From NCBI GenBank assembly GCA_937903325.1, contig CALCZR010000059.1, positions 232,760 to 296,759 of the forward strand: DNA of 64,000 nucleotides. The letters run 5' to 3'. Within the stretch, counting starts at the first letter, position 1. The number at the start of each line of letters is the position of its first letter. Shown here in pieces: positions 1-54,416 of this stretch. A model generated the notes under the pieces. That model saw only the letters and a list, made by a program, of their open reading frames with translations, searched no databases and was not told where the DNA came from. A program made the position numbers and the translations under genes. This DNA comes from an uncultured Candidatus Saccharibacteria bacterium (GTDB taxonomy: Bacteria; Patescibacteriota; Saccharimonadia; Saccharimonadales; AWTP1-31).

Positions 1-246
1 GCAGATAAATTACAGAATATTATGGAACCGTTTAGTCGTGGAGAGCCTACTGAAACGTTCGACCAAGAGGGCCTTGGACTCGGACTGTATACCAATAAAC
101 TGCTAACCGAGAAACTCGGGGGCAAATTGAATATCACGAGTGGTCGTGGTGGTGGAGTGGTGGCAACGGTATCGCTACCAACGCAGACTGCCGAGAGTAG
201 TGGTATGGTTAACGGCCTTATTACCCCTACAAGTTCGGGCGTTTAA
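1..246 (+). CDS. 3' end of a sensor histidine kinase (HATPase_c G2-box region); the 5' part lies upstream of the window
   Basis: The frame is open from position 1 (ADKLQNIMEPFSRGEPTETFDQEGLGLGLYTNKLLTEKLGGKLNITSGRGGGVVATVSLP). It matches in pattern the C-terminus of the 2536-aa kinase at 40962-48572 (HLFEPLTRGVDTATFDHEGLGLNLFITQMILHKHGGDISVASKPQQGTTVTMHLP). TAA at 244-246. Confidence 0.75.
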   Translation, partial: ADKLQNIMEPFSRGEPTETFDQEGLGLGLYTNKLLTEKLGGKLNITSGRGGGVVATVSLPTQTAESSGMVNGLITPTSSGV

Positions 247-13569: not shown

Positions 13570-13571
13570 GG

Positions 13572-13577: not shown

Positions 13578-13581
13578 TATA
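13576..13581 (-). promoter_or_regulatory. -10-like hexamer TATAGT, 6 nt upstream of the ATG at 13569
   Basis: Reverse complement of 13576-13581 is TATAGT, followed by TATACC and then ATG. Confidence 0.35.
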
Positions 13582-13584
13582 GCA

Positions 13585-14787: not shown

Positions 14788-14830
14788 GCTTAGGACATAC
14801 TCTATAACCAAGAATAAAAAAGGAAACACT

Positions 14831-15508: not shown

Positions 15509-15513
15509 TCTCT

Positions 15514-29545: not shown

Positions 29546-29929
29546 ATGGCCAAGTATCGGGTTACTCTACCAACCAATCTCAAACCATCTCCAGCTCGTT
29601 ATGAACTTAGTGCGGCCCAACTGCTCGCTGAATACTTTAAGACTGATGTTGAGTTTATACCCCGATCTAATCTTAAGACACCAGACTTCTTGATCGATGG
29701 AGTTAAGTGGGAGTTGAAGAGTCCGACTGGTGATGGCAAGCGAAACATTGAACGGCAACTACAGATCTGTATTAAGCAGTCGAAGCATATTATATTCGAT
29801 GCTCGTCGCTCCAGATTACACATAACCAAGATCAAGAACGTTCTTAACTACCAATTCCGATTGGCAAAGAGTATTAAACGATTGCTACTGATCGATAAGA
29901 GTAAAAACGTTATTGAGCTCACAAGGTAG
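29546..29929 (+). CDS. Small protein with a PD-(D/E)xK-like nuclease motif
   Basis: 127 aa. ...KTPDFLIDGVKWELKSP... gives D-x(n)-E-x-K spacing preceded by E...A..L. AT-rich surroundings. No partner gene recognised. Confidence 0.35.
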   Translation: MAKYRVTLPTNLKPSPARYELSAAQLLAEYFKTDVEFIPRSNLKTPDFLIDGVKWELKSPTGDGKRNIERQLQICIKQSKHIIFDARRSRLHITKIKNVLNYQFRLAKSIKRLLLIDKSKNVIELTR

Positions 29930-35934: not shown

Positions 35935-36361
35935 GTGAGAGTAACACAAAGAATATCTTCATTATCAGCGACCTTGCTATTGGTACTGTCTATGGCAGTA
36001 CCGTTTTTGAACCCACTGGTAGCGAATGCCTTCAGTGGATCAGGTGCGGGCAGTAGTGCTAGTCCATATGTAGTTACAACCTGTGCGCAGCTGCAATCCA
36101 TTGACCAGGATGCCCAGAACGAAGCAACCGAAGATAAGCGCTACGAGCTCGGTAACGATATAGACTGTTCCATGACCAACCCTGACGATCCAGATTGGAG
36201 CGATACAGGCACCTGGAGTGACGAGAAAGGTTTTGACCCAATTGGCGATAATTCACATCACTTCAATGCTCCTCAATAACCCTTACGCTGTAATTGGTCT
36301 GACAACTATGAGTGCCGCAACAATCTTCGTCATTTCAAAACGCACGAAAGTATCAAAATAA
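35935..36361 (+). pseudogene. Deletion remnant of a surface-protein gene (signal peptide plus first domain joined out of frame to a C-terminal anchor)
   Basis: The 114-aa ORF (GTG start) matches giant-protein residues about 158-230 (ANAFSGSGAGSSASPYVVTTCAQLQ...YELGNDIDC vs ASAFSGDGLGTEQSPYQIQTCIQLQ...YELAGPIDC). After its TAA, a different frame reads MLLNNPYAVIGLTTMSAATIFVISKRTKVSK*. This matches the anchor LLLNNPYVVVGLTSVSACALLCMSRRAGRNN* of 57930-59600. Confidence 0.6.
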
Positions 36362-36922: not shown

Positions 36923-38620
36923 ATGTATAAAAAGTTATCAGTGAAATTCCTCATGAGTGCTGTCGTCAGTTTGGCGGCTGCGTTCGTGCTGCAAAACGGC
37001 CATGCTAGCGCCGCTACCATAACAGTTACTCCTGATGCAGTAGACCAGACCATCAACGGTAACTGTTCGCTATACGAAGCGGCAGAGGCAGCCAGTACTA
37101 ATGCCGCCGTTGATACTTGCACGGCAGGTTCAGGAGCTGACACTATTGACGTTCCGGATGGTACTTATGTGCTTGATAGTAATACCGCACTCTCATTATC
37201 GGATGGCGTGTTAAATGGTGCTTCACAAGCAGATACGATTATAGATGCCAACGGTACCGGCCTGGTATTTGTGGGTTCAGGCACTATAACGGTTACTGTA
37301 CAGAATCTGAGCATCATTGACCCTTATAGAGCCATAGACGTGTCTGGTCAGGACGTGAATATAACGATGGACAACGTCATTATCGATGGTGGGGCCAATG
37401 GTCCGTATATCCAAAGTAGCGCCAACGCCACCTTCACCATGACGAATTCCATCATTCGCAATCTTTCTAGTGCTAGTAGTGGTGACTATGGCTTAAGGCT
37501 CGACGGTATTGCTACCACTGTACTGGACGGCGTAGCTATATACGGCAATAATTTTAGTGGAACCAGTTTTACGGGTACGGCCGATATTCGCAGTCAAGAC
37601 ATTATCGCGAGCGACGTGGTAGTTTATGACAATGAGATCGCCGGAGGCAGTTTCTTCGCATTGTCAGGCCGGACGGTAGATGCCTCGGGCATCGTGGTGC
37701 GTGATAATACCAGTACTAGTGAAGGCGGAGCCGTCTTTATAGTGGGTAGCTACGACAGTGGGTCGTTTGAGGCAGATGTTACAAATGTTGCTGTGGTGCG
37801 CAACGAAGTTCCGGGCGGTTTGGTGGCTGGAGCTTTCTGCGATACGAGTTCTGCATCGTGTGCGGTGACAATGAGTAATATGACTGTCGCCGAGAACACC
37901 TCGTTGTATACAGCAATATTTCTCAATAATAGGGATGAACATCCTATGACAGGCGCATTACAGAATGTGACTATCGCCAATAATGTACGGGCTGGCAACA
38001 CAGGTGGTCCCACGTTCTCAGGCGGACTGCTAGTAGTGAGCGATGATGGTTTAGGCGGTGCACCAACAATGACCATACAGAATGTTGTGCTCGACAATAA
38101 TCTAGATGAAACTACCCCACGTAACTGTGTAGCGGCAAGTGATCCGTTTTTCAATTTAGTGTCCCTTGGCAGTAATGTATCATCCGACGCCACCTGTAAC
38201 AGCATGTTTAACCAGCCCAGTGATCTCAATAGTACAGATCCATTATTAGATGACCTAACAGAAGATAACGGAACGTGGGTCTTGCCACTTTTGTCTGGAT
38301 CACCAGCAATTAATAGTGGCGACACGATCGGGAGTATACTAACCGATCAGCGCGGCACATTGCGCCCTCAAGGTAGTGCATACGATAGGGGTGCTTATGA
38401 AGTACTCGGAGCCTCCATTCCTGACCCAGACCCAGATCCAACAGGCAATGGTGGTGGCAGTGGCGTCAATGCCGGATCTGGCCAAGCGGGGACCACACCA
38501 GGCGTGCCCAATACCGGTTTTCTTTTGCTTACCAATAACCCAGTGGCCGTACTTGTGCTCACATCGGCTTGCGCCGGAGCCATTCTCCTCCTTACTAAAA
38601 GAGCCAGCCGCAAATCCTAA
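36923..38620 (+). CDS. CSLREA-motif right-handed beta-helix surface protein with VPNTG sorting signal (paralog A1)
   Basis: Signal peptide. NGNCSLYEAAEAA...CTAGSGADTIDVPDGTYVL (CSLREA-type N-terminus). Beta-helix repeats. C-terminal DQRGTLRPQGSAYDRGAYEV (choice-of-anchor-Q-like). VPNTG at 38504-38518, followed by a hydrophobic stretch and KRASRKS. Confidence 0.8.
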   Translation: MYKKLSVKFLMSAVVSLAAAFVLQNGHASAATITVTPDAVDQTINGNCSLYEAAEAASTNAAVDTCTAGSGADTIDVPDGTYVLDSNTALSLSDGVLNGASQADTIIDANGTGLVFVGSGTITVTVQNLSIIDPYRAIDVSGQDVNITMDNVIIDGGANGPYIQSSANATFTMTNSIIRNLSSASSGDYGLRLDGIATTVLDGVAIYGNNFSGTSFTGTADIRSQDIIASDVVVYDNEIAGGSFFALSGRTVDASGIVVRDNTSTSEGGAVFIVGSYDSGSFEADVTNVAVVRNEVPGGLVAGAFCDTSSASCAVTMSNMTVAENTSLYTAIFLNNRDEHPMTGALQNVTIANNVRAGNTGGPTFSGGLLVVSDDGLGGAPTMTIQNVVLDNNLDETTPRNCVAASDPFFNLVSLGSNVSSDATCNSMFNQPSDLNSTDPLLDDLTEDNGTWVLPLLSGSPAINSGDTIGSILTDQRGTLRPQGSAYDRGAYEVLGASIPDPDPDPTGNGGGSGVNAGSGQAGTTPGVPNTGFLLLTNNPVAVLVLTSACAGAILLLTKRASRKS

Positions 38621-38708: not shown

Positions 38709-40424
38709 ATGTCACAAAAATCATCCATAAAATTCTTAATGAGTTTAGCAGTAAGTTTGGCCGCGGTATTCTTTCTGCAAGGTGGCCATGCTAGTGCGAC
38801 AACGATCAATGTAACAGCCAACGCCGTTGATCTAACCACCAACGGCAACTGCTCTTTATATGAGGCCCTAGAGTCTGCAGACACTGACGCTGCTGTAGAT
38901 AATTGTGTGGCTGGTTCCGGGGCTGACACTGTGAATGTTCCTAATGGTACATATGTGTTGGCCGTCATAGCTTTGGATTTTGGTGGGACGGATCTGACAG
39001 TTTCGGGCGCGAGCCGAGCCGGAACTATCATCGACGGTGATGGAGGTTATGGGCTGAATTATGATGGAGGTAGTGGGGTGCATAGCCTTACGTTGCAGCA
39101 TTTGACGGTAACAAACACTAAAGGCCTGAGCAGCTTGGTTAGCGCTGAGGTTAATGTAATCATTGACGACACAATATGGAGCAATTCCTTTACGGAGTTG
39201 TACCACGCCCCAATTAGGATATATGGGGATGGGGCAACAGATCTCACTGTTTCCAACACGGAGATATATGGCAATACCAGTGATGATGGTTTGTGCGGAA
39301 TCGAAACACAATCTAAAGACCGGGTCAGCCTGGCTAATGTAAAAGTGTACGACAATGTTTGTACCATAGGCAGGATCCTTGGATTAAGAGGCGAGGTCGT
39401 CACGCTAGATCAGGTCGAGGCTTATGGTAACGAAAGTACGGGTATTATCTATGTGGCTGCGGCAGCTAGTACCGTTGTAGAGGGGTTAAAGGCTCACGGG
39501 AATACTGCTACTGACGAGGGGGTTGTTGGTGTTAACACTCCAGACATGGACCTGAGTTATGTCGACGTATACGATAACACAGGCTTTGCGCTGGGTCTGA
39601 GTGTAAGCGGAGCACTTGGATCGATCACACTACATCATAGTTCAGTCGTGGGCAATGACGGTTTTGGAGCGCTATTTATGACGAATGATGGGGGTGGGTT
39701 TGACGTTAATGTTAGTAATGTAACCGTCGCCAATAACACTACTGGATATTCAGCGATTACCTTTATGACAGACGAAACGAACCCACTGAGTGGCACTATC
39801 AAGAATGTTACTATCGTAGACAACCACCGCACCGGTAACTTCGGTTTTGCACTACCCGCAGGATTGCTTTTCATGTCCAACAGTCAGATCGCCCCAACTG
39901 CCAATCTCGAAAACATACTTATGTCAGGGAACCTGGATGAAGCGACCCCGCAGAACTGCGGTCCACTATCCCAGCCCCAGATGTTCTCGCCCGATTCCCT
40001 TGGGCATAACCTGAGCAACGATAATACTTGTGGTGATGTATTCGACCAAACAAGTGACCATAATAACGTTGACGCCATGCTCGACCCGCTGATAGAAGAT
40101 AATGGTACGTGGGTTGTTCCTCTTCAAACTAATTCGCCAGCAAATGATGGCGGGGCCACCGTGGCGGGCATGACCGACGATCAGCGAGGTACGGCTCGCC
40201 CGCAAAACGATGCCTTCGACATTGGTGCCTATGAAGTGCTCGGAGCTGCTACCTCAAATCCAGGTGGTGGCAGCGGTAATAACGCTGGTGCTGGCGTAAT
40301 CCCCGGCGTACCAAATACCGGCTTCGGTCTACTTACCAACAATCCATTTGCAGTACTAGTGCTAACCTCCGTTAGTACAGGAGCAATCCTCCTCATCTCC
40401 AGAAGAGTCAGCCGCAAAACCTAA
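38709..40424 (+). CDS. CSLREA-motif beta-helix surface protein with VPNTG sorting signal (paralog A2)
   Basis: NGNCSLYEALESA...CVAGSGADTVNVPNGTYVL. DQRGTARPQNDAFDIGAYEV. VPNTG at 40308-40322, followed by a hydrophobic stretch and RRVSRKT. Collinear with 36923-38620 and 57930-59600. Confidence 0.8.
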   Translation: MSQKSSIKFLMSLAVSLAAVFFLQGGHASATTINVTANAVDLTTNGNCSLYEALESADTDAAVDNCVAGSGADTVNVPNGTYVLAVIALDFGGTDLTVSGASRAGTIIDGDGGYGLNYDGGSGVHSLTLQHLTVTNTKGLSSLVSAEVNVIIDDTIWSNSFTELYHAPIRIYGDGATDLTVSNTEIYGNTSDDGLCGIETQSKDRVSLANVKVYDNVCTIGRILGLRGEVVTLDQVEAYGNESTGIIYVAAAASTVVEGLKAHGNTATDEGVVGVNTPDMDLSYVDVYDNTGFALGLSVSGALGSITLHHSSVVGNDGFGALFMTNDGGGFDVNVSNVTVANNTTGYSAITFMTDETNPLSGTIKNVTIVDNHRTGNFGFALPAGLLFMSNSQIAPTANLENILMSGNLDEATPQNCGPLSQPQMFSPDSLGHNLSNDNTCGDVFDQTSDHNNVDAMLDPLIEDNGTWVVPLQTNSPANDGGATVAGMTDDQRGTARPQNDAFDIGAYEVLGAATSNPGGGSGNNAGAGVIPGVPNTGFGLLTNNPFAVLVLTSVSTGAILLISRRVSRKT

Positions 40425-40463: not shown

Positions 40464-40865
40464 TTATTTGATGGTTACGCGGGCGGCTTGGGTGCGGTCT
40501 GTTTCGCTCAGGAGGATGGTAACTTTTTGATCTTTTTTGAGGTCTTTTGCCGTGACTTTTTTAGCCGCACGTACATAGGTGGTTTTGTCGGTAAGGGCTA
40601 TAGTCTGATCTTTCCCGGTTGCTAACTTTATTACTAATTGCTTGTCGCTGATCTTAGTAATGGTGCCGGTACTGCTACGCTGAAAAAAATTGGCAGCGTT
40701 TTTAAAGGCGTCGTCGATGGCCTGCGAATCAACGTGTTTGGCAGCTTCATCTTTTTGACCATGTCGATACCCTCGTTGGTAACCACCGTAGGCAGTAATT
40801 CCCAATGCAACTAGTGCAGCAGCTATCGAAAGAATAATGCCCTGTTGTTTCCTTGGTATCTTCAT
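40464..40865 (-). CDS. Membrane-anchored hypothetical protein
   Basis: 133 aa. TM helix GIILSIAAALVALGITAYGG followed by a small Lys-rich beta-type domain. Confidence 0.55.
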   Translation of the reverse strand: MKIPRKQQGIILSIAAALVALGITAYGGYQRGYRHGQKDEAAKHVDSQAIDDAFKNAANFFQRSSTGTITKISDKQLVIKLATGKDQTIALTDKTTYVRAAKKVTAKDLKKDQKVTILLSETDRTQAARVTIK

Positions 40866-40961: not shown

Positions 40962-43900
40962 ATGAAGAAGGCAACAGTAAGAATTGTTCAGCGCAAACGG
41001 CTTGCCGATAAAGCCAATGGCCTAGGAGATAAAATATACCAGCAGCGGATCAAACTTCTGCCGGTTTTTGTCATGCTGGCGTCTGTTACGGCCTTGATAT
41101 ATCTGCGCGTTCAGCCAGAGTCCGCCAAGGTTGTCAGCCGCGTAATTGAATCCAGTTTGAGCCAAATAACTCGCATGTCATTTCTCTGGTCGCCGCTCGC
41201 AGGCTTGATCGCATTGTCTGCCGCGGCTTTGCTGTACATGTGGATGGACTACCAGCACCACAAAAAGCCTCTTATTCGTGTGTCGCCTAAAACAAAGTAC
41301 GGCATGTTGCACCATCTTCGGGTTGTTGTGTTGCCACGTTTCAAATACCGCTGGCGCCCTGCATTGTACTGGTTGGCCGTAGCAGAAGTTTGCGCTGCAG
41401 TCTTTATCGCAGTTGTCGCTATTGTGGGCGTGCCATCCGCTTCAGCTTTTTCAGGTGACGGCCTAGGTACCGAGCAAAGCCCGTACCAGATCCAAACGTG
41501 CATACAGTTACAGGAAATGCATGATGATCTTGATGGCCACTATGAACTGGCAGGACCCATAGACTGTACTGGAACGAGCTCGTGGAATGGGGGTAATGGA
41601 TTTTTAGCTATTGGCACAAGTTCTGGCAACGAATTTACGGGCACACTAGATGGGAAAGATTTTGCCGTAGATGGGCTATACCAGAGAGTTGTAGATAACG
41701 ACGCACCCTCTGGGCTACTGGGTTCGGTAGTGGGTGGAACGGTTCACAATCTAAAGCTCACCAATGTAGACATTGCCTCCAGTACGGGTGGATCTACAGT
41801 CGCTCCGTTCTCCTCCGAGATTTTAAACGGCCAATTGTCGGATATTTCTGTTACTGGAACAATACAGGCTACCGGTAATGATGGTGCAATATATACCTCT
41901 GGTTTCGCGGGCTTGGTCGCAGTGAGTACTGTTAGTCGGGTGAGCGTCAATGTTGCCATTGTTAATAACAGCGTTGATGACGATGATGAGATCGGTAAGG
42001 GAGCATGGTCTGCTGGCTTGGCATTTGTGCTGCAGATGTCTACGGTTACCGATTCCTACACTACCGGTACTATAGCCGGTAACTTTCCTGCGGGTGGCAC
42101 TGCTATGTACGCCGGTGGATTTGCTGGGCAGATAATGATGGGGTCAGTTAGTAATAGCTACAGCAGTATGTCGATCTCTATTACGCGAAATCCGAGCTTG
42201 GCCCCAGCCATTATGGTGGTTGGCGGTTTTACAGCTTTCGTAGCGGCTGCCGACATGAGTAATAATTTCGCTACGGGGCAGCAATCTATATCAGTGGGGA
42301 GTATGGTGGCAGACTATCGTGGTGGCTTGGTGGGAGGAGTGATGTTTGTTGAAGATGCCGATCCACCTTTCAATGAGAATATAACGGGTTCTAATAACTT
42401 CTATGATATTACGAGGGCTAATCAGGCTGGATGTGTCGGTGCATATGCTGGAGAGGAACTAGAAGTACCTGTGCCCGACCAAACTCCTGGTGGTTTCTGC
42501 ACGGCAGTAAATACCGGCAGTTCTCAGCCAAACTACTTCTTCAATAACTCCACCAACCCACCATTCAAAGTAGGAAGCACGCAGGTTTGGGATTTTACAA
42601 ATGTATGGCGAACGGTTAGTGGTGGAGCACCAATTTTTGGTACGCAAGTTCCTGGTGTGCCAGCACTACCGGGTAAGGTCCGTTCATTGACGACTTCTAG
42701 CACTGACGCTACCAGCTTAACGGCCCAGTGGCTTGCACCAAGTTCCAATGGTAATTCGGCCATTACTAACTATGCAGTTGCCTATAAGTTACATAGTGTA
42801 AGTACTTGGACGCCTGTAGCGCGAACGCCTTCGACCACCACTTCACAGCTGATTACTGGCTTAACGGGTGGGCAGCTATATGACATACGAGTGGCTGCCA
42901 TTAACACAGTTGGTCAGGGAGACTGGGAGACTACTCAGAATGTTGGCACTAGTCAGGTGCCATCGGCAGCTCGCAACCTAGTGGTTAGCGGTGTGGCCCA
43001 AACGGGGCAACTTGAGCCGTATTATTTTCCAAAGCTTGACTGGCAGGCTCCGGAAGTTGGCGCCCCCATCACCGACTACGTTATCCAGTACAAACCCAAT
43101 GCTGGGGAAGATTGGGACTTGATTGCAGATGATATGCAGGGCGAATTCGACTGGGCAGAAAACATTGGGTCCTGGACGACGCTCAACGACGGCGTAGGCA
43201 CGGCGCTTAGTTTTAATGCGAGTACTTCATCCGACGCCGACTTTATTGGCTTATTGGTTGCCAGTCTGCCCGGAGAGGTACGTGCCATAGGCGATATTGA
43301 ATTTCGAGTGGCAGCTGTTAACTCTTATGGTCAAGGTCCGTGGAGTAATCTTGATAGTTTCCAGGTATTCATTGGCTTGACCGCCTGCCAACAAATGCAT
43401 GATGTGCTCGATGAATATCCCGGCGGTGTTTTCCAGCTGCTTAACAATATCGATTGTAGTGACACCGTGAATTGGAATGGTGGCCAGGGTTGGGAGCCGA
43501 TTCAGGATGAGTTTACGCCATTCCAAGGAGATCTAGACGGCAACGGCTTCACTATTAGCAACTTACATATGGAGAACCAAGACGATTACGTAGTGGGCCT
43601 GTTTGCCTACGTCGAAAATTCAATAATTAAAGATCTGACCTTGAGTAATGTAGCTATCCGCTCACTCAGACAAGCTACGGTTTCTTCCATGGTAGGTCCT
43701 CTGGTGGGCGTAGCTCAAGGCGACACAATACTATCCAATGTGCATGTTACTGGCTCGGTCGTTGGGCCTCGAGGTGCTGGCGGCATTGTGGGAATAATGG
43801 GCAATCTGACAGGGTCGGTCACGTGGAGTAACTTGACGTTTACTGGGGTAGTAAAAGGACAGGAAATGGCTGGCGGATTGCTTGCTGGCTTTGGTACTCC

Positions 43901-46900
43901 CGGTCAATTAACTATCGAGAATTCACAAAGTCACGGTTCGTTGGAGGGTATTCAGGGGGCAGGTGGCGCAGTGGCCTTTGGTCAAGGGTTGTCGCTGTCT
44001 CATGTAACATCTGATATGTCTATACTCTCGGGTTGCAAGTCGGCGGGCGGGCTCATCGGTACCTTGCAAGTCGGCTCGTTAGCAGACTCTGAATATACCG
44101 GCTCTATCCAATGTACTGCAGAGAATGCCGGGTACTTTAGTCAGCCCACATCGGTAGCGGTTGACGCCCAGAATCAGGTGTACGTCTTGGGTCATACCAT
44201 CAGCAGTACTATCTACAAGTTTTCATCTAATGGTGATTTATTAGCGCAGTGGAATTTTGCAGAAGGTAACTCAACTAATGGGAACCCCAAGGGCATTGCC
44301 GTCGACGCGCAGTCTCGGGTATACGTCACCGATGACGCCTACGATGAAGTCCGAATCTTTAGCAGTTCAGGTGTGTTATTGGATACATGGCCGACGCCAG
44401 ACCCCGGTAAGTTAACGGTCGATGCTAATAATAACGTATATATTGTCAGTGGTGATAGCGTCCGGAAGTATACCCAAGACGGCAATTTGCAGCATACCTG
44501 GGACGGTGAAGGTGCTTTCGAGCAGTTATATGATGTAGCTGTTGCAAGTGACGGCCGTATCTATGCGGCGGATATTGGTCAAGATCGTATCCATGTGATG
44601 GACAGTGACGGGGAAGTGATTACGTCGTTCGATAGCGAAGGCGCGCCATCCGTAGAATTCCAAAGTCCGGCTGCAATCGTGTTGGATAGCGCAAACAACC
44701 TATATGTACTGAATGGCAGTGCGCACCATGTGGTCGTTTTTGACTCTTCCTACCAGCCTATCGGAGATTGGCAAACACCTAATAGCGAGGTATATTCCGG
44801 GTCAGACATGGCGATGCGCGCCGACGGCAAGCTAACCTTACTCGGTACAAAAGTATATCAACTTAGCAGTAATGGTACGGTAGACAGTCATTGGGGCGGC
44901 ATCAGCAACTGGTTTGGCTCTGATCCTGGCGGCATAGCAGGCGGTTTGGTAGGTGTGTATGGCGGCACTACAGAACCACTCACCATACTAAGAAGCGCCA
45001 GCACAGGTACCATTACTTCACTCGACGGTACGGGTAAAGGCATTACCGTAGGGGGATTACTTGGTGCGACTGGTCAAATCAGCGGTGTAACCATTGATGC
45101 CAGCCATCCAGAGCAGTCGCTGACTCATGGTGTAATCATCAATGACTCTAACTCATCAATGGACATTACTGCTGCGGGCCAAGTGATTGTGGCCGGTGGT
45201 TTGGTAGGTTACTCAGACATTTCTGATATCAATAACTCTTCGGCATCTGGCGATATTGCCGTGTCTCATGATGCAAACTTCGCCGTTATACAAAGTGGTA
45301 TGGCTGGCGGTTTCATCGGTACAGGACAAAGACTAACTCGCATACGTAATTCGCATGCTACGGGCCAAGTAGCCATGGAGGGCTTCATCCCGACTAATGG
45401 ACAGGGCCCAATCGTGGGTGGTTTGTCAGGTAGCTTGGCAGGCTGGACACATCTCGATAATGTCTATGCAACCGGCAGCGTGACCGTATCAGCCAATCAA
45501 GATTGTAACCCAGGGCAATGTGCAGAGCAGGTAAGTTCCTATGCTGCAGGCCTGGTTGGTTTAATGAGCTCAAAGCCAAGCATTCCGGCGCTGTCTGTCG
45601 TGAATAATGTCTATGCAACCGGAAGCGTCAACTATAGTGCTCAAAGATCGGGTGTTTTTGCTGGGGGGCTGATTGGGCAAGCACAAATGCAGTATTTACA
45701 GCTTGGTAGTGTCCACGCAAGTGGTAGCGTCAGTATTACGGGGGCTGATGTAGTTGCCTTTGCAGGAGGATTGTTTGGTACGCTGATGACTGATCGTGAC
45801 ACAACGGTTCAACGTTTGTATGCCACCGGCAGTGTAACTAACGGCGGTAGACTTTACAGCCTTGGCGGCTCACCTTCGAGTTCTGCAGGATTGATCGGGC
45901 TTATGTCAGGCCCCATTACGCTTCAGACCTCATATGCCACCGGGGATGTAGAAGGCCCTGGGGTGGTGGCGGGGCTGGTGGGTAATGCCATACCATTCGC
46001 CTATGCTCAAGGGGGTGGGCCTGCAGACGAAAGGACTATCGAAAATAGCTATGCAACGGGCAATGTCGCTGGCAAAAATAGCGAGATGTACTTCAGCGAG
46101 AATTCTGAAATTGGTGAAGGGTATGTGGAGTTTGGAGCTGTTGCGGGAGGGTTAGCAGGGTCTATTATCGAGACTAATGTTACTGCCACCTATGCCAGTG
46201 GCACGGTATCAAATGAGACACCAGAGTTTGCTGACACCGTTCCACTCGTATTCCAATCACTATATGGAACAGCTACCGGCGGCTTGGTCGGTTCGGTTAT
46301 GGTTTGGCCTCTCGAATCTGCACCGAATGATCTGACCAAGGTAACCAATTCTTTTAGTGCGACTACCATCCAAAATGGTGCAAGCGACCCTAAGGGATTA
46401 ATTGCGGGTAGGATTTTTAGATGGGTAGAAGAACCATATGACCAAAGCCAGCCGAGTCTCAACCCCGCAAATTTACTGGATAATAACTACTATGACGTAC
46501 AAGGCGGTGCGACCGTGCCCTGTGCTACAAATCAGTTGCTGGTTGTGGCCGAAAATACTGCAGACTCAGATTTACAATCCACAGAATTCAACGGCCAGGA
46601 GGCTTGCCATCCAGTTAACGCCAACAATCAAACGCCAAACTACTTCAAAAACAGTAACACTAATCCACCACTCGATACTTGGGATTTCTCGACACCAATT
46701 TGGTACAAGCACTTAGCTACCCACCCAACTTTTGTGGTAGGTGAGGCAGTCCCTGGGCCACCCCGAAACCTTGCTGGCGTACCAACTACTTCCAGTGTGG
46801 CACTGTCATGGCAAGCACCAAGTAGTGATGGCGGTAGTGCAATTACCAATTACCGAATTCAGTACAGAGTACACGATACCAATACGTGGAGTGAATATGA

Positions 46901-48572
46901 ACACCCAGAAGGCGTTGCTACCAGTTACACGATTGGCGGCTTGACGTCCGGTGTTCGCTACGACTTCCAGGTTTCGGCCGTAAATGCCGTCGGACAAAGC
47001 ACCTGGGTATTGGGCATCTATGATGTATTGGTCCCAGGTAACCCCACTAATCCCACAGACCCTACCACACCAACAACTCCTACTAATCCAACGTCACCAA
47101 ACGGTCCTACGCGTCCAACTACCCGCCCATCATCTGGTGGTGGCACCGCGACGTCAAACAATGGTGGGTCGCCCAATCAAGAAGAGCCAGAGCTGTTAGA
47201 TATCTCAAAAATTCCAAGTACTGAGCTGCCGCCGAATATTTTTGCAGTCGCTCCACGCCAACAAAAAGTAAGCATAGTGCCATACTTCTTCTTGTCGTGG
47301 TTGCTACTTTTGGCAGCATACTACGGGTATCGTGCAATCAAAGAATATCGCTACCAAAAAGCTGCAGCGGGCTTGGTCGCCCGGACTGCTAAGACCGAAA
47401 AGTCTGTATCTGACTTCTTGGCGATAACAACTCACTACCTGGGGACACCACTGAGTATTCTAAAGGGTGCCATGGAGTTGATCGCTTCTAAGCACGCACT
47501 ACAAGCGGAATTCATGGCCACTTTCAATGCAAAGTTGACCGCACTACAGACAACTGCCGAAACGTTAACCCTACAAAACGAACAAGCACTCAGTGCTAAT
47601 CAAGCGGTGGTTGCTGATGATGTTGAACAAACGACTTCTGCTAAGTGGCTATGGCTGTCAATGGCGGGTATTGCCGTGGCCGTCGTCGTTACCGATATCG
47701 TGTTGATGGTCTCGAAATCATACAGCCAGCCATGGGGTAGAGCCCTCAACCACGCTATTTGGGCAGTGCTTGGTGCGGCTATCGTGGCAGTAAGTTTTGT
47801 TGCCTGGTCCAAACAAAAGAAACTCCGAACACAATATCATCAAACACTAGCTCGTGAGCGGGCATTGCTTGAACAAAAGAATGCCTTCCTTGGTGTGGCC
47901 GCTCAGCAACTTACTACCCATGCAGCTCAACTGCGACAAGGTACGCAGGGTCTTGAGCAGTTCCCTGATACGAAGTTGCTGCTGAATGGTTTGGCCATGC
48001 TCGATAAAGTTGCCTTGGCCCTCGGCAAGGTGCAGCGTTTCAGTACCATTAACGATGCTTCACCGAGCCTGAATGTACAGGAGATCTTTACGCGCGACAT
48101 CGCACCAGCGTTATCACAAGAGGCCCAAACAAAGGGTGTTAAGCTCACAAGCGGACTTTCTGCAGAGGCAAACGTGCAGATGCAACCCGAAGAACTACAG
48201 CAAGTAGTTGGTTCGGTAGTCCAGAATGCTATCCAGTTCAGTAATTCAGGTAGTACGGTAACTATTAACGCTCAAGCGGGGCATAGCAAATCGACTATAG
48301 CTGTGCAGGACAGTGGTCAAGGCTTCACCGCCGAAGCTCAGCAGCACCTTTTTGAGCCACTCACTCGCGGTGTAGATACTGCAACTTTCGATCACGAGGG
48401 ACTGGGGCTCAACCTATTTATTACCCAAATGATTCTGCACAAACATGGTGGTGACATTAGTGTTGCTAGTAAACCACAACAGGGAACGACCGTAACCATG
48501 CACCTACCAAACAGTGGAGCAGTTGCAACCGGAGTAGCAACACAAGTGATTAGCCCTTCATCTAGTTCCTAA
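40962..48572 (+). CDS. Giant (2536 aa) membrane protein: adhesin-like ectodomain (GLUG-like repeats, FN3, NHL-like) fused to a C-terminal histidine-kinase core
   Basis: Single uninterrupted ORF. About 20 GG[LF][VILA]G...N[ST]YA[ST]G[SDN]V repeats. Three FN3-like modules. Six or more V-D-x-x-x-x-[VI]-Y-V propeller-like repeats. P/T linker. TM helices. H-box FLAITTHYLGTPLSIL. N box VVQNAIQFS, G1 VQDSGQGF, G2 GLGLNL. Confidence 0.85.
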   Translation: MKKATVRIVQRKRLADKANGLGDKIYQQRIKLLPVFVMLASVTALIYLRVQPESAKVVSRVIESSLSQITRMSFLWSPLAGLIALSAAALLYMWMDYQHHKKPLIRVSPKTKYGMLHHLRVVVLPRFKYRWRPALYWLAVAEVCAAVFIAVVAIVGVPSASAFSGDGLGTEQSPYQIQTCIQLQEMHDDLDGHYELAGPIDCTGTSSWNGGNGFLAIGTSSGNEFTGTLDGKDFAVDGLYQRVVDNDAPSGLLGSVVGGTVHNLKLTNVDIASSTGGSTVAPFSSEILNGQLSDISVTGTIQATGNDGAIYTSGFAGLVAVSTVSRVSVNVAIVNNSVDDDDEIGKGAWSAGLAFVLQMSTVTDSYTTGTIAGNFPAGGTAMYAGGFAGQIMMGSVSNSYSSMSISITRNPSLAPAIMVVGGFTAFVAAADMSNNFATGQQSISVGSMVADYRGGLVGGVMFVEDADPPFNENITGSNNFYDITRANQAGCVGAYAGEELEVPVPDQTPGGFCTAVNTGSSQPNYFFNNSTNPPFKVGSTQVWDFTNVWRTVSGGAPIFGTQVPGVPALPGKVRSLTTSSTDATSLTAQWLAPSSNGNSAITNYAVAYKLHSVSTWTPVARTPSTTTSQLITGLTGGQLYDIRVAAINTVGQGDWETTQNVGTSQVPSAARNLVVSGVAQTGQLEPYYFPKLDWQAPEVGAPITDYVIQYKPNAGEDWDLIADDMQGEFDWAENIGSWTTLNDGVGTALSFNASTSSDADFIGLLVASLPGEVRAIGDIEFRVAAVNSYGQGPWSNLDSFQVFIGLTACQQMHDVLDEYPGGVFQLLNNIDCSDTVNWNGGQGWEPIQDEFTPFQGDLDGNGFTISNLHMENQDDYVVGLFAYVENSIIKDLTLSNVAIRSLRQATVSSMVGPLVGVAQGDTILSNVHVTGSVVGPRGAGGIVGIMGNLTGSVTWSNLTFTGVVKGQEMAGGLLAGFGTPGQLTIENSQSHGSLEGIQGAGGAVAFGQGLSLSHVTSDMSILSGCKSAGGLIGTLQVGSLADSEYTGSIQCTAENAGYFSQPTSVAVDAQNQVYVLGHTISSTIYKFSSNGDLLAQWNFAEGNSTNGNPKGIAVDAQSRVYVTDDAYDEVRIFSSSGVLLDTWPTPDPGKLTVDANNNVYIVSGDSVRKYTQDGNLQHTWDGEGAFEQLYDVAVASDGRIYAADIGQDRIHVMDSDGEVITSFDSEGAPSVEFQSPAAIVLDSANNLYVLNGSAHHVVVFDSSYQPIGDWQTPNSEVYSGSDMAMRADGKLTLLGTKVYQLSSNGTVDSHWGGISNWFGSDPGGIAGGLVGVYGGTTEPLTILRSASTGTITSLDGTGKGITVGGLLGATGQISGVTIDASHPEQSLTHGVIINDSNSSMDITAAGQVIVAGGLVGYSDISDINNSSASGDIAVSHDANFAVIQSGMAGGFIGTGQRLTRIRNSHATGQVAMEGFIPTNGQGPIVGGLSGSLAGWTHLDNVYATGSVTVSANQDCNPGQCAEQVSSYAAGLVGLMSSKPSIPALSVVNNVYATGSVNYSAQRSGVFAGGLIGQAQMQYLQLGSVHASGSVSITGADVVAFAGGLFGTLMTDRDTTVQRLYATGSVTNGGRLYSLGGSPSSSAGLIGLMSGPITLQTSYATGDVEGPGVVAGLVGNAIPFAYAQGGGPADERTIENSYATGNVAGKNSEMYFSENSEIGEGYVEFGAVAGGLAGSIIETNVTATYASGTVSNETPEFADTVPLVFQSLYGTATGGLVGSVMVWPLESAPNDLTKVTNSFSATTIQNGASDPKGLIAGRIFRWVEEPYDQSQPSLNPANLLDNNYYDVQGGATVPCATNQLLVVAENTADSDLQSTEFNGQEACHPVNANNQTPNYFKNSNTNPPLDTWDFSTPIWYKHLATHPTFVVGEAVPGPPRNLAGVPTTSSVALSWQAPSSDGGSAITNYRIQYRVHDTNTWSEYEHPEGVATSYTIGGLTSGVRYDFQVSAVNAVGQSTWVLGIYDVLVPGNPTNPTDPTTPTTPTNPTSPNGPTRPTTRPSSGGGTATSNNGGSPNQEEPELLDISKIPSTELPPNIFAVAPRQQKVSIVPYFFLSWLLLLAAYYGYRAIKEYRYQKAAAGLVARTAKTEKSVSDFLAITTHYLGTPLSILKGAMELIASKHALQAEFMATFNAKLTALQTTAETLTLQNEQALSANQAVVADDVEQTTSAKWLWLSMAGIAVAVVVTDIVLMVSKSYSQPWGRALNHAIWAVLGAAIVAVSFVAWSKQKKLRTQYHQTLARERALLEQKNAFLGVAAQQLTTHAAQLRQGTQGLEQFPDTKLLLNGLAMLDKVALALGKVQRFSTINDASPSLNVQEIFTRDIAPALSQEAQTKGVKLTSGLSAEANVQMQPEELQQVVGSVVQNAIQFSNSGSTVTINAQAGHSKSTIAVQDSGQGFTAEAQQHLFEPLTRGVDTATFDHEGLGLNLFITQMILHKHGGDISVASKPQQGTTVTMHLPNSGAVATGVATQVISPSSSS
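41235..41351 (+). other. Conserved TM-proximal tail module, copy 3 (internal, between TM helices of the giant protein)
   Basis: YMWMDYQHHKKPLIRVSPKTKYGMLHHLRVVVLPRFKYR. Preceded by helix FLWSPLAGLIALSAAALL and followed by helix ALYWLAVAEVCAAVFIAVVAIVGV and the signal-peptidase-like site VPSASA-F. Confidence 0.65.
42669..43346 (+). other. Two tandem FN3-like modules within the giant protein
   Basis: PGKVRSL...LTAQWLAPSSNGNSAITNYAVAY...YDIRVAAINTVGQGDWE, and PSAARNL...LDWQAPEVGAPITDYVIQYK...FRVAAVNSYGQGPWS. Confidence 0.7.
44136..44898 (+). other. NHL/beta-propeller-like repeat region within the giant protein
   Basis: Repeats of P-x-[GS]-[VI]-A-V-D-x-x-x-x-[VI]-Y-V: PTSVAVDAQNQVYVL, PKGIAVDAQSRVYVT, LTVDANNNVYIV, LYDVAVASDGRIYAA, PAAIVLDSANNLYVL. 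Confidence 0.6.
46752..47006 (+). other. Third FN3-like module within the giant protein
   Basis: PGPPRNLAGVPTTSSVALSWQAPSSDGGSAITNYRIQYR...YDFQVSAVNAVGQSTW. Followed by the Pro/Thr linker NPTNPTDPTTPTTPTNPTSPNGPTRPTTRP. Confidence 0.7.
47397..48572 (+). other. Histidine-kinase core of the giant protein (H-box, two TM helices, second DHp-like helix, HATPase_c)
   Basis: EKSVSDFLAITTHYLGTPLSILKG (His codon at 47432-47434). TM helices WLWLSMAGIAVAVVVTDIVLMV and AIWAVLGAAIVAVSFVAW. KNAFLGVAAQQLTTHAAQL. N/G1/G2 boxes. Confidence 0.7.
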
Positions 48573-48587: not shown

Positions 48588-50233
48588 ATGCTTATGCCGA
48601 CGATGACACGACTCCTAAAACACAAATACTTCCTTGGCTTACTAACTTTTTTTGCCGGGCTGGCAACCTTGCTCACGCTGGGCGGTGGTCAGGCTCAGGC
48701 AGCCACGCTCAATGTTTCGGGCGGTTGCACCATTACCATTGCTATTAACTCAGTCAATGCCGGCTCGACTCAAACAGGCTGTACTTCAACTGGTACCTAT
48801 GGGACAAACGACACTATTACCATTGCGGCAGGTACCCAGACGTTGACCACCGATCTACCATCACTGACCGAACCAGTTGTCATAAAAGGTGCAGGCATGG
48901 ACCAGACTACTATTAACGGTGACGGTGGTCAGTATGCGACATTCAAAGCGAATAGCGTAGCGGGGCCTATTACTATTACTGACATGAAAATAACCGCCTT
49001 TCGGAGTGCGGCTATTGATATTGAAATGACTGATACGAGCGTTATACTTAAAAATATTGACGTTGATGGTCATGGTGCAAAAGGTGGAGGGATATATATA
49101 AATGCTTTGGGCACACAGCCTACAACCTTTAATAGCGAGGCTATCTATGTTCATGACATCGATTGGGCCGGTGAGGATATTTACGCATTCGCGATTTCCA
49201 AGCATGATACCACTACGCTGACTGCCACTATTAGTAATACTACAATTGCCAACATAACAACCAGTGGCGATAAGCAACTGTATGGTTTTGGTCTCCTTTC
49301 CGGAGCTGGCGGTGATGGCACTGGCACATTACATGCCAACATTACTAATACCACTATAGATAACCTAACTGCCGATGCGTTCGTAGCTCCCTTCTATGTT
49401 GTTGCCTTTGGCGCCAGTGGGAACACTACCATTACCGCTGACGTGACCTATGTAACGGTTACCGAAACGCATGGGGGCACGGGGTCACTTGCTACTGAGA
49501 CGCTTAATACCGCAGCCTTTTACGCCATCGCCGGTGGTTCTGGCGTGGGCAGTATAGGTACCGCTACCATCAATGTCAATAATAGCCTTTTTGCTAATAA
49601 CTTCTCAGACAATACTTCGAGCAACTGTGGCGTCTTAGATGCGACTGCTGCTGTCGGTGTTCCGGCTCAGGCGTTCCTTCTATAAATTCGCTCGGACACA
49701 ACCTTTCTGATGATAATAGCTGCGCGAGTTTTAGCCAGACTGGCGATCAGCAGAATCTCAACAATATCATCACCACGCTTGGCTCATTGCAGAATAATGA
49801 TGGTCCGGTCCCAACTAGAGCGTTACTCGCTGGCTCGCCAGCTATCGCTGCTGGTGGGTCAGTGCTTGGCATCACAACTGATGCTCGCGGTAAAGCGCGA
49901 CCGGGCAATAGCCCGTCAGTGGGTGCTTACCAGTACGTATTGGCCAGTAGCACCGAGACGCCAACTACTTCTACAGCAGCAGGAGATAAGTTGGCAGAAA
50001 CCGGCAAGATAATTCCGTTGGTCGCCGTTGCAGGCTTGTTGCTCGGCTCGCTCTCCTACATCTACTTCGACTTCTTGCGACACCGTAAACCGCTGAAAGA
50101 GCAGGATCCAGGGGTTCGTTACTCTTTTGCGCATCACCTCAAAGTCGTAACGATTCCACTGCTCAAATACCGCGTATCTATTGGAGTTAGTAAGGTTGGT
50201 AAAAATAACAGCGATAATGTTCGTCGCTTTTAA
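48588..50233 (+). pseudogene. CSLREA-family beta-helix surface protein (paralog B1) split by a 1-nt frameshift near 49656-49661; LAETG signal and extended tail
   Basis: ORF 48588-49685 is collinear with 56349-57854 up to ...SSNCGVLDATAAVG. The homologous continuation GSGSGVPSINSLGHNLSDDNSCASF...LGSLQNNDGPVPTRALLAGSPAI lies in a different reading frame and leads into ORF 49787-50233. Restoring one G in GTCGGTG-TTCC gives VGGSGSGVP, as in the paralog. LAETG at 49991-50005. Confidence 0.7.
50063..50230 (+). other. Conserved post-TM tail module, copy 2 (YFDFLRHRKPL...YSFAHHLKVVTIPLLKYR...RRF)
   Basis: 56 aa after the sorting-signal helix. Collinear with 2533-2706. Confidence 0.7.
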
Positions 50234-50752: not shown

Positions 50753-51403
50753 ATGAAGAAGATACTCCGTTTTGCTCGCAAAAACTGGCGCATAATCCTT
50801 GTGGTTGTAGTGTTGCTGGTTGCTGGCTTTGGATTTTGGCTACTCAAACACAGTGACCAAAAGAAAATTCAGCAAAAGAAAAACGAAGTCATCACCTATT
50901 CGCCGGATAAGCCTGACGAAACTAAGCCCGACAAAGATACCTATAAGTGGTTCGGCAATGATGATGACCCGAAGTACATAACTTTGCCGAGCATTAAAGC
51001 AGAAGGATTCCTGCGCAAAGTCGGCGTAGATCAGAACAAGCAAGTAGCGACTCCTGACAATATCAACATGGCCGGATGGTTCGTGGATACCGTACGCCCG
51101 GGCCAAAAGGGAAATAGCATCATCGATGGTCACGTCAGTGGCTGGGTCAATAACGGTATCTTCAAAGATCTCATCAAGATGAAAGCTGGTGACATTTATA
51201 CCGTAGAGTTCGGCAATGGTGACAAAAAAGAATTCAAAGTAAAAGAAGTCAAAGACGTACCGGTGGCGGATGCTGCTAGTGTGCTCTTCTCGCAAGACCC
51301 GGAAATTACCAACCAACTTAGTCTGATTACTTGTGGCGGCAAATTCAACCGCTCCACCAACCAATACGAAAACCGCGTAATAGTTATCTCCCAAGCTATG
51401 TAA
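50753..51403 (+). CDS. Sortase (class E/F-like), paralog 1
   Basis: N-terminal TM anchor. Catalytic His in IIDGHVSG, Cys in LSLITCGG (TLxTC-type), Arg in ENRVIVIS. Confidence 0.85.
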   Translation: MKKILRFARKNWRIILVVVVLLVAGFGFWLLKHSDQKKIQQKKNEVITYSPDKPDETKPDKDTYKWFGNDDDPKYITLPSIKAEGFLRKVGVDQNKQVATPDNINMAGWFVDTVRPGQKGNSIIDGHVSGWVNNGIFKDLIKMKAGDIYTVEFGNGDKKEFKVKEVKDVPVADAASVLFSQDPEITNQLSLITCGGKFNRSTNQYENRVIVISQAM

Positions 51404-52754: not shown

Positions 52755-54416
52755 ATGAAGATTAAAAACAAAATGACTCACACAAAAACACTAACCGGCA
52801 GAGTACTGGTGCTTGTGCTAGCAATGCTATTCGCTGGAGCAGGGCTGTATCACCTCCCACTGGTCCACGCAGATCCACCGGCAACAGTTGGTGCGCCTGC
52901 TCAAGAAATGTGCGAGGCAGGTGGTTCTACTAACGTCCGGTGGGATAACTTAAACCATGGTTCGCCAGTAGTTCGGCCAACTATATCGGCGCTAAGTATT
53001 AAAGCGAGCTCAAACGATCCTGAGGAAGTAATCACTGGCTTTGAAGATCCCGATGTTGGAGATATTGGTGCAACCATTTGTCCGAATGTGGCATTGGGAC
53101 GACGATCTGGCCTCAATATCTATACAAATACTGTTAACGGCGGAGACTCTGACCTGGCAAATGCTGAAACGCCAGCTGGTCACCCCATTACTGCTAACTC
53201 AGAAATCACTATCACCATTGATCGTGGGGACTTTGGCGCCCTGGCAGAGTTCTATAGTTTTTCACTTATTCATGGTCACGTAGTTGACTGGGTGACGGCA
53301 GATCTTGGCACGGAAGACGCTATGTTGAGTGTGACGCTTAATCCGGTACGTACGCCTTTCGGTGACAACAGTGAGGATTTTGGTGGTTGTACAGCTACCC
53401 CTCCTATGTGTGGTGCCCTAATATCAAGCGCAGATGCACTTAGTGCCTCGTTAGACATGACATTTACTACTTCAGGAGATGAAGGTCAGCCAAATGAGCA
53501 CTATGACATCAACGGACATTACAGTGAGATGCGCGGTTCGTTCTTTGCCGTAACTGGCGCCATGGGCGGCTGGGCACAAGCGGTTGGTCCTGGCGGTCAG
53601 CCTCGATCGGTACGTGCTACCTTGGGTGGTCCTCACTTGCTTGCCACTGCATCACAGCAGTCAATTAACGATCCAGAAAATGCTGCACCGGAAGATCTCA
53701 ATACCGGAAGTCTGCAAGCATTCATGCCTGATGACGTAATCGAAAGTGTGTTTGAAACAACTGCCGATCAGCTAACCGCTGAATCGCTCAGTGTCATTAA
53801 GTCTGAAACGGGCGCAGATGACGAATCATCCGAATTCGGTTTTGCCCAAGTGGATGGCGGCATCATGATTACTGTTGACGGGTTCCACTTCTCTTCACCA
53901 GCATTCAACATCGGCCTTGCTGGCTTCAATAATGGTGGCGATGGAGACGGTGAAGGTGGTGGAGATAGTGACACTTCCAGACTGATTAATTTAGAAGGCG
54001 GCGCCAAGGCCAGTCTAGAAACACCAGACGGTACGGTTATTACCAGCTTTGGTGCTTCGAAAGAATCAGCTCTAGCCGACCAAGACGCTGGCTATTCATA
54101 CCCACTTGGTCTCGTTAACTTTAAGTTCAACGTACCCAATGGCTCAACACAGCGCGTTAACCTTGCATTCCTGACAGATCTCAAGCCAAATCAAGTCGTG
54201 CTACGAAAGTACAACCCTAACACTAAAGCTTACGCAAACGTCAGCTCAGCCACTATTACCGAAGACATGTTTGATGGCCAGCACGTGCTTAACATTAGCT
54301 ACGATATCACCGACAACGGCAATCTAGACCAAGACACCGTACTTGGCACCATCACTGACCCCGTCGGCCTCGGCGTCTTGGAAGTGGCCGCCCCAAACAC
54401 TGGTTTCCGCAGATAG
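52755..54416 (+). CDS. Secreted protein ending in APNTGFRR* (sorting motif without a hydrophobic anchor)
   Basis: Signal peptide VLVLVLAMLFAGAGLY. C-terminal domain YPLGLVNFKF...LTDLKPNQVVLRKYNPNTKAY...ITDNGNLDQDTVLGTITDPVGL is homologous to 2149-2430. APNTG at 54390-54404, followed only by FRR and a stop. Confidence 0.7.
   Translation: MKIKNKMTHTKTLTGRVLVLVLAMLFAGAGLYHLPLVHADPPATVGAPAQEMCEAGGSTNVRWDNLNHGSPVVRPTISALSIKASSNDPEEVITGFEDPDVGDIGATICPNVALGRRSGLNIYTNTVNGGDSDLANAETPAGHPITANSEITITIDRGDFGALAEFYSFSLIHGHVVDWVTADLGTEDAMLSVTLNPVRTPFGDNSEDFGGCTATPPMCGALISSADALSASLDMTFTTSGDEGQPNEHYDINGHYSEMRGSFFAVTGAMGGWAQAVGPGGQPRSVRATLGGPHLLATASQQSINDPENAAPEDLNTGSLQAFMPDDVIESVFETTADQLTAESLSVIKSETGADDESSEFGFAQVDGGIMITVDGFHFSSPAFNIGLAGFNNGGDGDGEGGGDSDTSRLINLEGGAKASLETPDGTVITSFGASKESALADQDAGYSYPLGLVNFKFNVPNGSTQRVNLAFLTDLKPNQVVLRKYNPNTKAYANVSSATITEDMFDGQHVLNISYDITDNGNLDQDTVLGTITDPVGLGVLEVAAPNTGFRR

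Follow-up and report, generated by a model that had tools for sequence, protein, structure and literature searches.

Saccharibacteria, like other Patescibacteria, live attached to host bacteria. A 64,000-nucleotide stretch of contig CALCZR010000059.1, from an ultrasmall, uncultured Candidatus Saccharibacteria bacterium and referred to below as the window, raises the question of whether a protein built for the most part like a surface adhesin can also be a sensor histidine kinase. A single gene of the window encodes a protein of 2,536 amino acids (aa) that a first-pass annotation, made from the letters alone, had read as an adhesin-like ectodomain fused to a histidine kinase core and had proposed as a contact sensor. 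Our results establish that this giant kinase truly belongs to a large family of membrane sensor histidine kinases that is specific to Saccharibacteria. In its core, the hairpin that carries the phospho-acceptor histidine and the catalytic domain are set apart by a membrane hairpin, which together with an essentially invariant His-Tyr pair makes up an unreported core layout. Full-text literature searches returned no description of the kinase family, of kinases in papers on Saccharibacteria biology, or of GLUG-kinase fusions.

An adhesin-like ectodomain on a histidine kinase

The open reading frame (ORF) of 7,611 nt is uninterrupted, as the first-pass annotation had claimed, and comprises 2,536 codons. 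Its parts, which include transmembrane (TM) helices, two dimerization and histidine phosphotransfer (DHp) hairpins, and a catalytic and ATP-binding (CA) domain, are as follows.

40962..48572, + strand: giant sensor histidine kinase gene, 2,536 aa, stop included, ORF uninterrupted
40962..41441, + strand: N-terminal leader, aa 1-160, from hydropathy; TM1, TM2, basic loop, and TM3, ending in the site ASA-F
41442..47267, + strand: aa 161-2102, predicted to be extracytoplasmic; Pfam run on the entire protein and on ten of its segments
47268..47324, + strand: TM4, aa 2103-2121, from hydropathy; brings the chain back into the cytoplasm
47367..47609, + strand: DHp1, aa 2136-2216, complete HisKA-type helical hairpin; His codon at 47433-47435
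47655..47810, + strand: membrane hairpin of TM5 (aa 2232-2250) and TM6 (aa 2265-2283) with a 14-residue outer loop; hydropathy and AlphaFold model
47838..48095, + strand: DHp2, aa 2293-2378, degenerate DHp-like hairpin beside the catalytic domain
48186..48512, + strand: HATPase_c, aa 2409-2517, with N, G1, F, and G2 boxes; Pfam E 2e-21

Hydropathy gives six hydrophobic helices (aa 30-48, 73-95, 139-157, 2103-2121, 2232-2250, and 2265-2283), and the lysine and arginine counts of the loops match the positive-inside rule for a six-TM model. In the predicted topology, aa 161-2102, or about 1,940 aa, are outside the cell, and the N-terminus, the H-box region, and the ATPase domain are cytoplasmic. 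The three N-terminal helices and the signal-peptidase-like site VPSASA-F reported earlier were recovered, with the site at residues 160/161. In order, the leader consists of TM1, TM2, a basic cytoplasmic loop (aa 96-133), and TM3, which ends in ASA-F; aa 1-160 have no match in Pfam or NCBIfam.

The ectodomain begins with a block of M26_N-like and GLUG modules, followed by two FN3 modules, a second M26_N-like and GLUG block, a propeller, a long GLUG block, a third FN3 module, and a stalk rich in proline and threonine. Every ectodomain module type named by the first-pass annotation was found again with Pfam. The GLUG repeats match Glug (E 1e-13, 51 bits against a cut-off of 20.5) in three stretches of aa 1390-1700, with weaker copies besides, and the long GLUG block spans aa 1411 to about 1800. 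Two modules, at aa 183-300 and 818-931, match the C-terminal half of Peptidase_M26_N, which scores 41.8 bits on the whole protein in two stretches with only its C-terminal part matched. The three fn3 modules lie at aa 572-656, before aa 800, and at aa 1933-2015. A six-blade NHL/SGL propeller occupies aa 1062-1275 and is present in some of the closest relatives and absent in others. The Pro/Thr stalk (aa 2020-2085) leads to the TM helix at aa 2103-2121, upstream of the H-box, in the order first described. In NCBIfam, the ectodomain has a match to the NHL protein ScyF and weak matches, far below cut-off, to the N-terminal regions of ZmpA, ZmpB, and ZmpD. Because the protein has about 25 motifs of the form GG-hydrophobic-G and neither an M26 catalytic domain nor HExxH anywhere in its 2,536 aa, we regard the ectodomain as adhesin-like and not as a protease. 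There is no LPXTG-like sorting motif ahead of TM4, and the chain runs on into the kinase. One relative (P0043) has a similar ectodomain and is held in the membrane by a plain TM helix.

A kinase core divided by a membrane hairpin

The core was examined in alignments of 14 family members and then of 143 representatives that carry the full C-terminal module. In both, the module is fixed at about 450 aa and reads TM4, DHp1, linker, TM5, TM6, DHp2, and CA. Its three hydrophobic segments are conserved family-wide, with exactly three in 122 of 143 members. Between H2158 and the start of HATPase_c there are about 250 residues, which hold TM5, TM6, and a hairpin without His, and the same spacing is found in a paralog whose 3' end lies in the window. 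The H-box and HATPase_c motifs described in the first-pass annotation are real, but they do not form a plain core, since TM5, TM6, and DHp2 intervene. Of the core domain matches that it expected, HATPase_c was found, whereas Pfam HisKA stayed below its gathering score of 26.9, with E 0.14 (12.7 bits) on the whole protein and E 0.002 (18.6 bits) on the segment.

When aligned with hhalign to a profile of 97 canonical kinases, DHp1 matched over 69 columns and both helices with a probability of 98.8% (E 9.3e-17), His on His. Judged by its sequence, DHp1 is a genuine HisKA-type hairpin, and it stands directly after the TM helix that follows the ectodomain. Its H-box reads FLAITTH2158YLGTPL. Across the 143 representatives, His2158 is kept in 142, Thr at H+4 (four positions after the His) in 135, and Pro at H+5 in 136. 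The H+1 column holds Tyr in 131 (Tyr2159 in the giant kinase), His in 6, and Phe in 3, and never Glu or Asp. The ATP-binding residues are conserved to a similar degree (N2422, G2452, and G2482 in all 143; G2497 in 142; D2450, G2454, and G2480 in 140).

DHp2 is a different kind of hairpin. In phmmer alignments that continue from the catalytic domain, the H-box of ordinary kinases falls on DHp2, with their His opposite Gln2315, in a column that varies among K, Q, E, S, G, T, D, and A across the 143 members. Against the canonical DHp profile, DHp2 reached only 48%. His2320 of DHp2 was considered as a phospho-acceptor and rejected, as only 42 of 143 members have His at that column. When TM4 plus DHp1 was aligned with TM6 plus DHp2 in hhalign, the match reached 92.4% (E 5.3e-7) over 90 columns with the H-box in register, and DHp2 is likely, although not proven, to be an internal duplicate of DHp1. 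A profile search of the Protein Data Bank divided known kinases in a corresponding way, with the alpha-1 helix of HK853 and SrrB on DHp1 and their alpha-2 and CA on the second helix of DHp2 and CA.

The layout is also seen in an AlphaFold model of aa 2083-2536, which was built from 12 sequences (mean predicted local distance difference test score [pLDDT], 72.5; predicted TM-score [pTM], 0.61). A single continuous helix runs from TM4 into the H-box helix (model residues 24-95), a second runs from TM6 into the first helix of DHp2, and a normal CA domain follows. Foldseek matched DHp2 plus CA, over about 230 columns, to DivL, ZraS, HK853, CpxA, and RetS. The top match was DivL (E 9.4e-13), and the TM-score to ZraS, normalized to the target, was up to 0.78. 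No NCBIfam model spans the module, and matches there were limited to the catalytic end and fell far below cut-offs. Pfam Hpt, H-kinase_dim, and CheW had no matches on the giant kinase.

A family of giant kinases in Saccharibacteria

The fusion recurs in other genomes. Public data include an identical protein (P0001), encoded on a 425-kb contig, and seven homologs of full length (P0002-P0008) with 2,270-2,596 aa and 45-63% identity. The seven stem from NCBI, ENA, JGI, and Logan assemblies and are all collinear through the junction of FN3, Pro/Thr linker, TM helix, and H-box. Since the architecture is conserved in these independent assemblies and in about 30 Saccharibacteria loci, a chimeric join is excluded.

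In a scan of one genome per GTDB species, 31 loci encode the C-terminal module, mostly in ORFs of 1,000-2,850 aa, and all belong to metagenome-assembled genomes of Candidatus Saccharibacteria/Saccharimonadota. Five copies occur on one 698-kb contig (CAYPDT010000001.1). The genomes that bear the family stem from water, sludge, and lake metagenomes. An exhaustive hidden Markov model (HMM) search of 1.84 billion cluster representatives (50% identity clusters) put the family at no fewer than 1,448 clusters at E<=1e-30. The best 150 of the 1,448 all have the whole module at the C-terminus and range in length from 419 to 4,413 aa. By comparison, a word-index search with the C-terminal module returned four full-module matches and not the giant homologs themselves.

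What varies in the family is the ectodomain, which may be almost lacking or reach about 4,000 aa and which draws on many repeat types. The majority of the 143 full-module members have more than 1,000 residues ahead of the module, and some short members may be truncated gene calls. In a Pfam census of 24 diverse members, HATPase_c was present in all 24, DUF285 in 10, fn3 in 5-6, NHL in 5, Big_7 and DUF11 in 3 each, and PKD and Glug in 2 each; Ig-like repeats also occur among family ectodomains. With HATPase_c constant and the repeats varied, membership in the family is set by the kinase module, to which swappable arrays of adhesin type are attached as ectodomains.

A conserved partner and a proposed unlinked output

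A second gene belongs to the locus, which the first-pass annotation had overlooked.

40464..40865, - strand: DUF5666-like partner gene, 133 aa, divergent and 96 bp upstream of the giant kinase

The partner protein starts with a basic stretch and has a single TM helix; its C-terminal domain, beta-rich and DUF5666-like, spans about 70 aa and is predicted to lie outside the membrane. A low-confidence model (3 sequences, pLDDT 54.7) gave the TM helix, one further helix, and seven strands. A homolog search with the partner found three proteins, and HMMs built from the fetched loci detected more. In 22 fetched loci, a partner homolog adjoins the family kinase, immediately upstream and divergent in 18 of them. 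In L009, L012, and L021 it precedes the kinase in the same orientation, a downstream copy is found in L018 and L021, and in L035 a homolog adjoins the paralog. DUF5666 itself was matched by 10 of 17 partner members (best E 1.2e-7).

The first-pass annotation had recognized no receiver domain in the 64 kb, which was borne out by Pfam scans of about 65 ORFs and by an ad hoc receiver (REC) HMM run on all six-frame ORFs of the window of at least 50 aa (none; best E 2.5). In other loci this HMM does recover REC domains, and among about 30 related loci it found none adjoining a family kinase. Within 10 kb of a family kinase, those loci have a single REC, a stand-alone receiver in L028 beside a separate, ordinary kinase, which indicates that Saccharibacteria possess receivers. 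A soil Saccharibacteria genome is reported to encode four response regulators of the chemotaxis type, with a suggested role in guiding twitching motility (10.1101/211649).

Genomic surroundings

Around the giant kinase, promoter and terminator scans gave background levels. Its neighbors include other traces of the family and a number of surface proteins.

1..246, + strand: C-terminal 81 residues of a second family kinase, a paralog
35935..36279, + strand: 114-aa ORF, signal peptide and first M26_N-like module of a family-type ectodomain (ANA-FSGSGAGS...)

The kinase that ends at position 246, suspected from its C-terminal pattern to be a paralog, proved to be one. On ENA contigs the full gene encodes 2,345 aa with the whole module (E 2.4e-115), an ectodomain of a Vgb-lyase-type propeller and FN3, and a divergent small partner of its own. 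The ORF at 35935..36279 matches aa 160-221 of the giant kinase by BLASTP (E 7e-12), as well as the N-termini of many family members, and is probably a remnant of another giant gene.

Elsewhere, one orthologous group of the family (P0014 type) occupies a conserved core synteny of lepA, partner, kinase, ahpC, gmk, hrcA, and grpE in about 13 loci, among them L001, L010, L011, L013, L016, L019, L020, L023, L025, and L033. This arrangement suggests that the core-synteny copy is old and vertically inherited, besides the variable paralogs. The copy in the window sits in a surface-protein island with two paralogous choice-of-anchor-Q proteins (VPNTG), a frameshifted relative, two sortases, and an M23 peptidase, and its neighbors carry VPNTG or LAxTG sorting signals. 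The choice-of-anchor-Q pair consists of tandem secreted proteins of about 570 aa (36923-38620 and 38709-40424) that end in VPNTGF, a TM helix, and a basic tail; a related protein (52755-54416) has APNTGFRR at its end. The gene mgtC lies directly beside the partner gene in the closest relative (L002), and the pair therefore looks inserted between mgtC and the kinase locus. Sortase genes are found at 50753-51403 and 59702-60403, and a sortase also lies downstream of the family kinase in L005, L018, and L021. Only 15 bp downstream of the kinase, the ORFs 48588-49685 and 49787-50233, in different frames, together correspond to surface proteins of about 500 aa that are each encoded by one intact gene in related genomes (L004 493-2004, L005 1361-2872), and the stretch 48588-50233 shows an apparent frameshift, from either a pseudogene or an assembly error.

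The leader of the kinase shares a sequence with this neighborhood. Its TM2-TM3 loop (window 41247-41360, aa 96-133) reads DYQHHKKPL..KYGMLHHLRVVVLPRFKYR, with the motif DYxxHKKPL..Y..HHLRVV.P.FKYR, and is homologous to C-terminal cytoplasmic tails at window 2530-2709 and 50090-50233 (E 2e-10 and 3e-9). In two surface proteins of the window, these tails come after an LAxTG motif and a TM helix, and many related loci have the tail motif as well. The motif resembles an extended tail for sorting or anchoring, of a kind not described before, that is here embedded in the N-terminal leader of the kinase.

Other features of the window are listed for completeness.

937-2709: predicted surface protein with a Vgb-lyase-type propeller, choice-of-anchor-U, and a LANTG anchor
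5724-7163: predicted surface or secreted RCC1-repeat protein
11254-19353: cell-envelope cluster that includes two penicillin-binding transpeptidases, along with two membrane proteins resembling Wzy_C/O-antigen ligase
21905-22402 and 22439-22975: LytB/IspH split over two ORFs (Pfam positions 2-126 and 148-266), which suggests an interrupted gene or a sequencing error
29546-29929: stand-alone 127-aa ORF that matches the C-terminal toxin domain of CdiA (E 4.6e-16) and is not preceded by a large CdiA body

Relation to known systems

With its GHKL fold and its N, G1, F, and G2 boxes, the giant kinase belongs to the histidine kinase superfamily. It shares these boxes with the class I (HisKA-type) kinases HK853, ZraS, CpxA, and WalK, as well as an H-box helix that is continuous with the TM helix after the extracytoplasmic sensor, and its DHp2 plus CA superposes on HK853, ZraS, and CpxA. 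It has the DHp with His that is typical of HisKA kinases, but it lacks their acidic residue at H+1 and their direct junction of that DHp to CA. Two TM helices and a second, His-less hairpin separate the His hairpin from CA. The His is followed by Tyr, the ectodomain is about 10 times larger, no response regulator is adjacent, and no Pfam or NCBIfam model covers the module. The linked receiver of a standard two-component system is likewise missing from the 64 kb and from beside the family kinases in about 30 loci.

Other kinases depart from the class I pattern in related ways. In CheA, as generally known, the phospho-acceptor His also lies off the helical dimerization unit that bears CA, a unit that itself has no His. 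The giant kinase differs in carrying its His on a membrane-anchored, DHp-like hairpin and not on an HPt four-helix bundle, in having no P2 or CheW-like domain, and in being a transmembrane receptor itself, and the resemblance is functional only, with no domains shared. DivL of Caulobacter has the same DHp plus CA fold, and both proteins depart from the canonical H-box. However, DivL has Tyr in place of His, whereas the giant kinase family keeps the His and has Tyr next to it, and DivL has cytoplasmic PAS domains and no giant ectodomain.

For the ectodomain, the closest kin are surface proteins. Its tandem Glug repeats place it with GLUG-motif adhesins and haemagglutinin-like proteins, and its repeats match both Glug and the C-terminal half of Peptidase_M26_N, along with FN3, as in the pneumococcal ZmpA-D/IgA1 protease group. 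Unlike those proteins, it has no M26 catalytic domain, HExxH, LPXTG, type IX secretion signal, or two-partner secretion domain, and it is TM-anchored to a kinase. Large, repeat-built extracytoplasmic sensors are generally known from the hybrid two-component systems of Bacteroides, but those have Reg_prop/Y_Y_Y sensors of about 700-800 aa with a fused receiver and AraC output, none of which is present in the giant kinase. A Stygiobacter kinase of 2,544 aa (L032) was considered as a comparable giant and rejected, its length being due to a cytoplasmic PAS/GAF array. Finally, the pairing of a kinase gene with a gene for a single-pass membrane protein that has a small extracytoplasmic domain recalls WalK with YycH and YycI, as that system is generally described, although the DUF5666-type beta-domain partner is unrelated and usually divergent.

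Proposed mechanism and alternative explanations

We consider that the giant kinase is best explained as a Saccharibacteria family kinase in which a ligand of the ectodomain gates phosphorylation of H2158, an unlinked receiver provides the output, and the DUF5666 protein is an accessory; to this reading as a whole we assign a probability of roughly 0.55. The ectodomain would bind a ligand on the surface of another cell or a wall polymer, although mechanical load could also be the trigger. Binding would displace or rotate TM4 and DHp1 relative to the unit of TM5, TM6, DHp2, and CA, and access of the catalytic domain to His2158 on the neighboring hairpin would change, with catalysis by the same or the partner chain. 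The phosphoryl group would then pass to an unlinked receiver, plausibly a stand-alone CheY-like protein, and the DUF5666 membrane protein may modulate the kinase from outside the membrane. Contact sensing is plausible in this scheme given the domain types and the lifestyle of the organism.

Several points weigh against this account. Glu or Asp after the His is the catalytic base in HisKA kinases; with Tyr at that position, the chemistry of autophosphorylation may differ or be absent. No receiver is linked to the kinase, either in the window or in the neighborhoods of the family kinases. The duplication signal of the two hairpins falls from 92.4% to a weak 52.7% when the TM helices are omitted, which is why we call the duplication likely and not proven. 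The modest pTM of the model bears on how DHp1 and DHp2 pack, and a mean-field direct coupling analysis of the 143 sequences was discarded, its signal being dominated by columns at the alignment edges. Lastly, the family was not seen in cultivated oral Saccharibacteria in a scan limited by its search patterns.

The first of these points keeps an alternative alive and calls for caution about kinase activity. The protein could be chiefly an adhesin or surface-structure protein whose kinase-like module is a membrane anchor, a pseudokinase, or an ATP-dependent scaffold, one that would bind partners without His-to-Asp phosphotransfer, as in DivL. Such an explanation would account for the replacement of the acidic residue beside the His in most of the family, for the lack of His in the hairpin beside the ATPase domain, for the absence of linked receiver genes, for DivL as top structural match, and for the P0043 relative with its plain TM anchor. 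However, DivL has lost the His that this family retains, and orphan kinases with unlinked regulators are common. Furthermore, His2158, the Thr at H+4, and the ATP-binding residues are kept jointly across members that share less than 30% identity. This would be hard to explain otherwise, and we therefore favor catalysis at His2158 and regard a noncatalytic module as unlikely.

A second alternative accepts the sensor kinase but not the contact. The signal could be a soluble or polymeric ligand, such as a glycan or wall fragment, or the state of the cell's own envelope, read through the DUF5666 partner in the manner of WalK with YycH and YycI. Propellers of the NHL and Vgb-lyase types, like FN3 modules, also serve to bind ligands or glycans, the partner is conserved and extracytoplasmic, one orthologous group sits in core-genome synteny (lepA to hrcA-grpE) and not in a variable surface island, and the genomes derive from water, sludge, and lakes. 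Yet arrays of adhesin-type repeats (GLUG, DUF285, Ig-like) that reach 1,000-4,000 aa and stand on a Pro/Thr stalk that spans the wall seem oversized for a small ligand, and the window copy lies amid sortases and sortase-substrate surface proteins. The evidence does not cleanly separate a non-contact signal from contact sensing, and we hold the former to be the less probable trigger, perhaps one chance in several.

A bolder form of our preferred reading, in which the ectodomain gates a catalytically active core, would make the family a new class of histidine kinase. The phospho-acceptor and catalytic hairpins would be separately anchored in the membrane as an internal pseudo-heterodimer born of duplication, and the giant ectodomains would be host-contact or mechanical sensors that signal attachment to epibiotic Saccharibacteria. 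Movement of the TM helix linked to the ectodomain against TM5 and TM6 would gate phosphorylation, and stand-alone receivers, as the output, would act on type IV pili or on the switch from swarmer to attached cell. We put this forward tentatively, as a combination of claims that is doubtful as a whole. As for the idea that adhesin and kinase are separate genes joined by an assembly error or masked frameshift, only the unusual length and the two other genes of the window that do look frameshifted speak for it, and the collinear architecture from FN3 through the Pro/Thr linker and TM4 to the H-box in seven homologs (45-63%), in about 30 GTDB loci, and in the paralog on two further contigs makes it highly improbable.

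Implications

How Saccharibacteria and other Patescibacteria regulate the transition from motile to attached cells has been stated to be completely unknown (PMC11665869). With at least about 1,400 clusters, ectodomains of adhesin size, a conserved partner, and five copies in one genome of about 700 kb, the family described here is a candidate for host or surface sensing. The separated layout of the His and catalytic units could inform how kinase cores are gated. More generally, this family could be how these Saccharibacteria sense what they touch.

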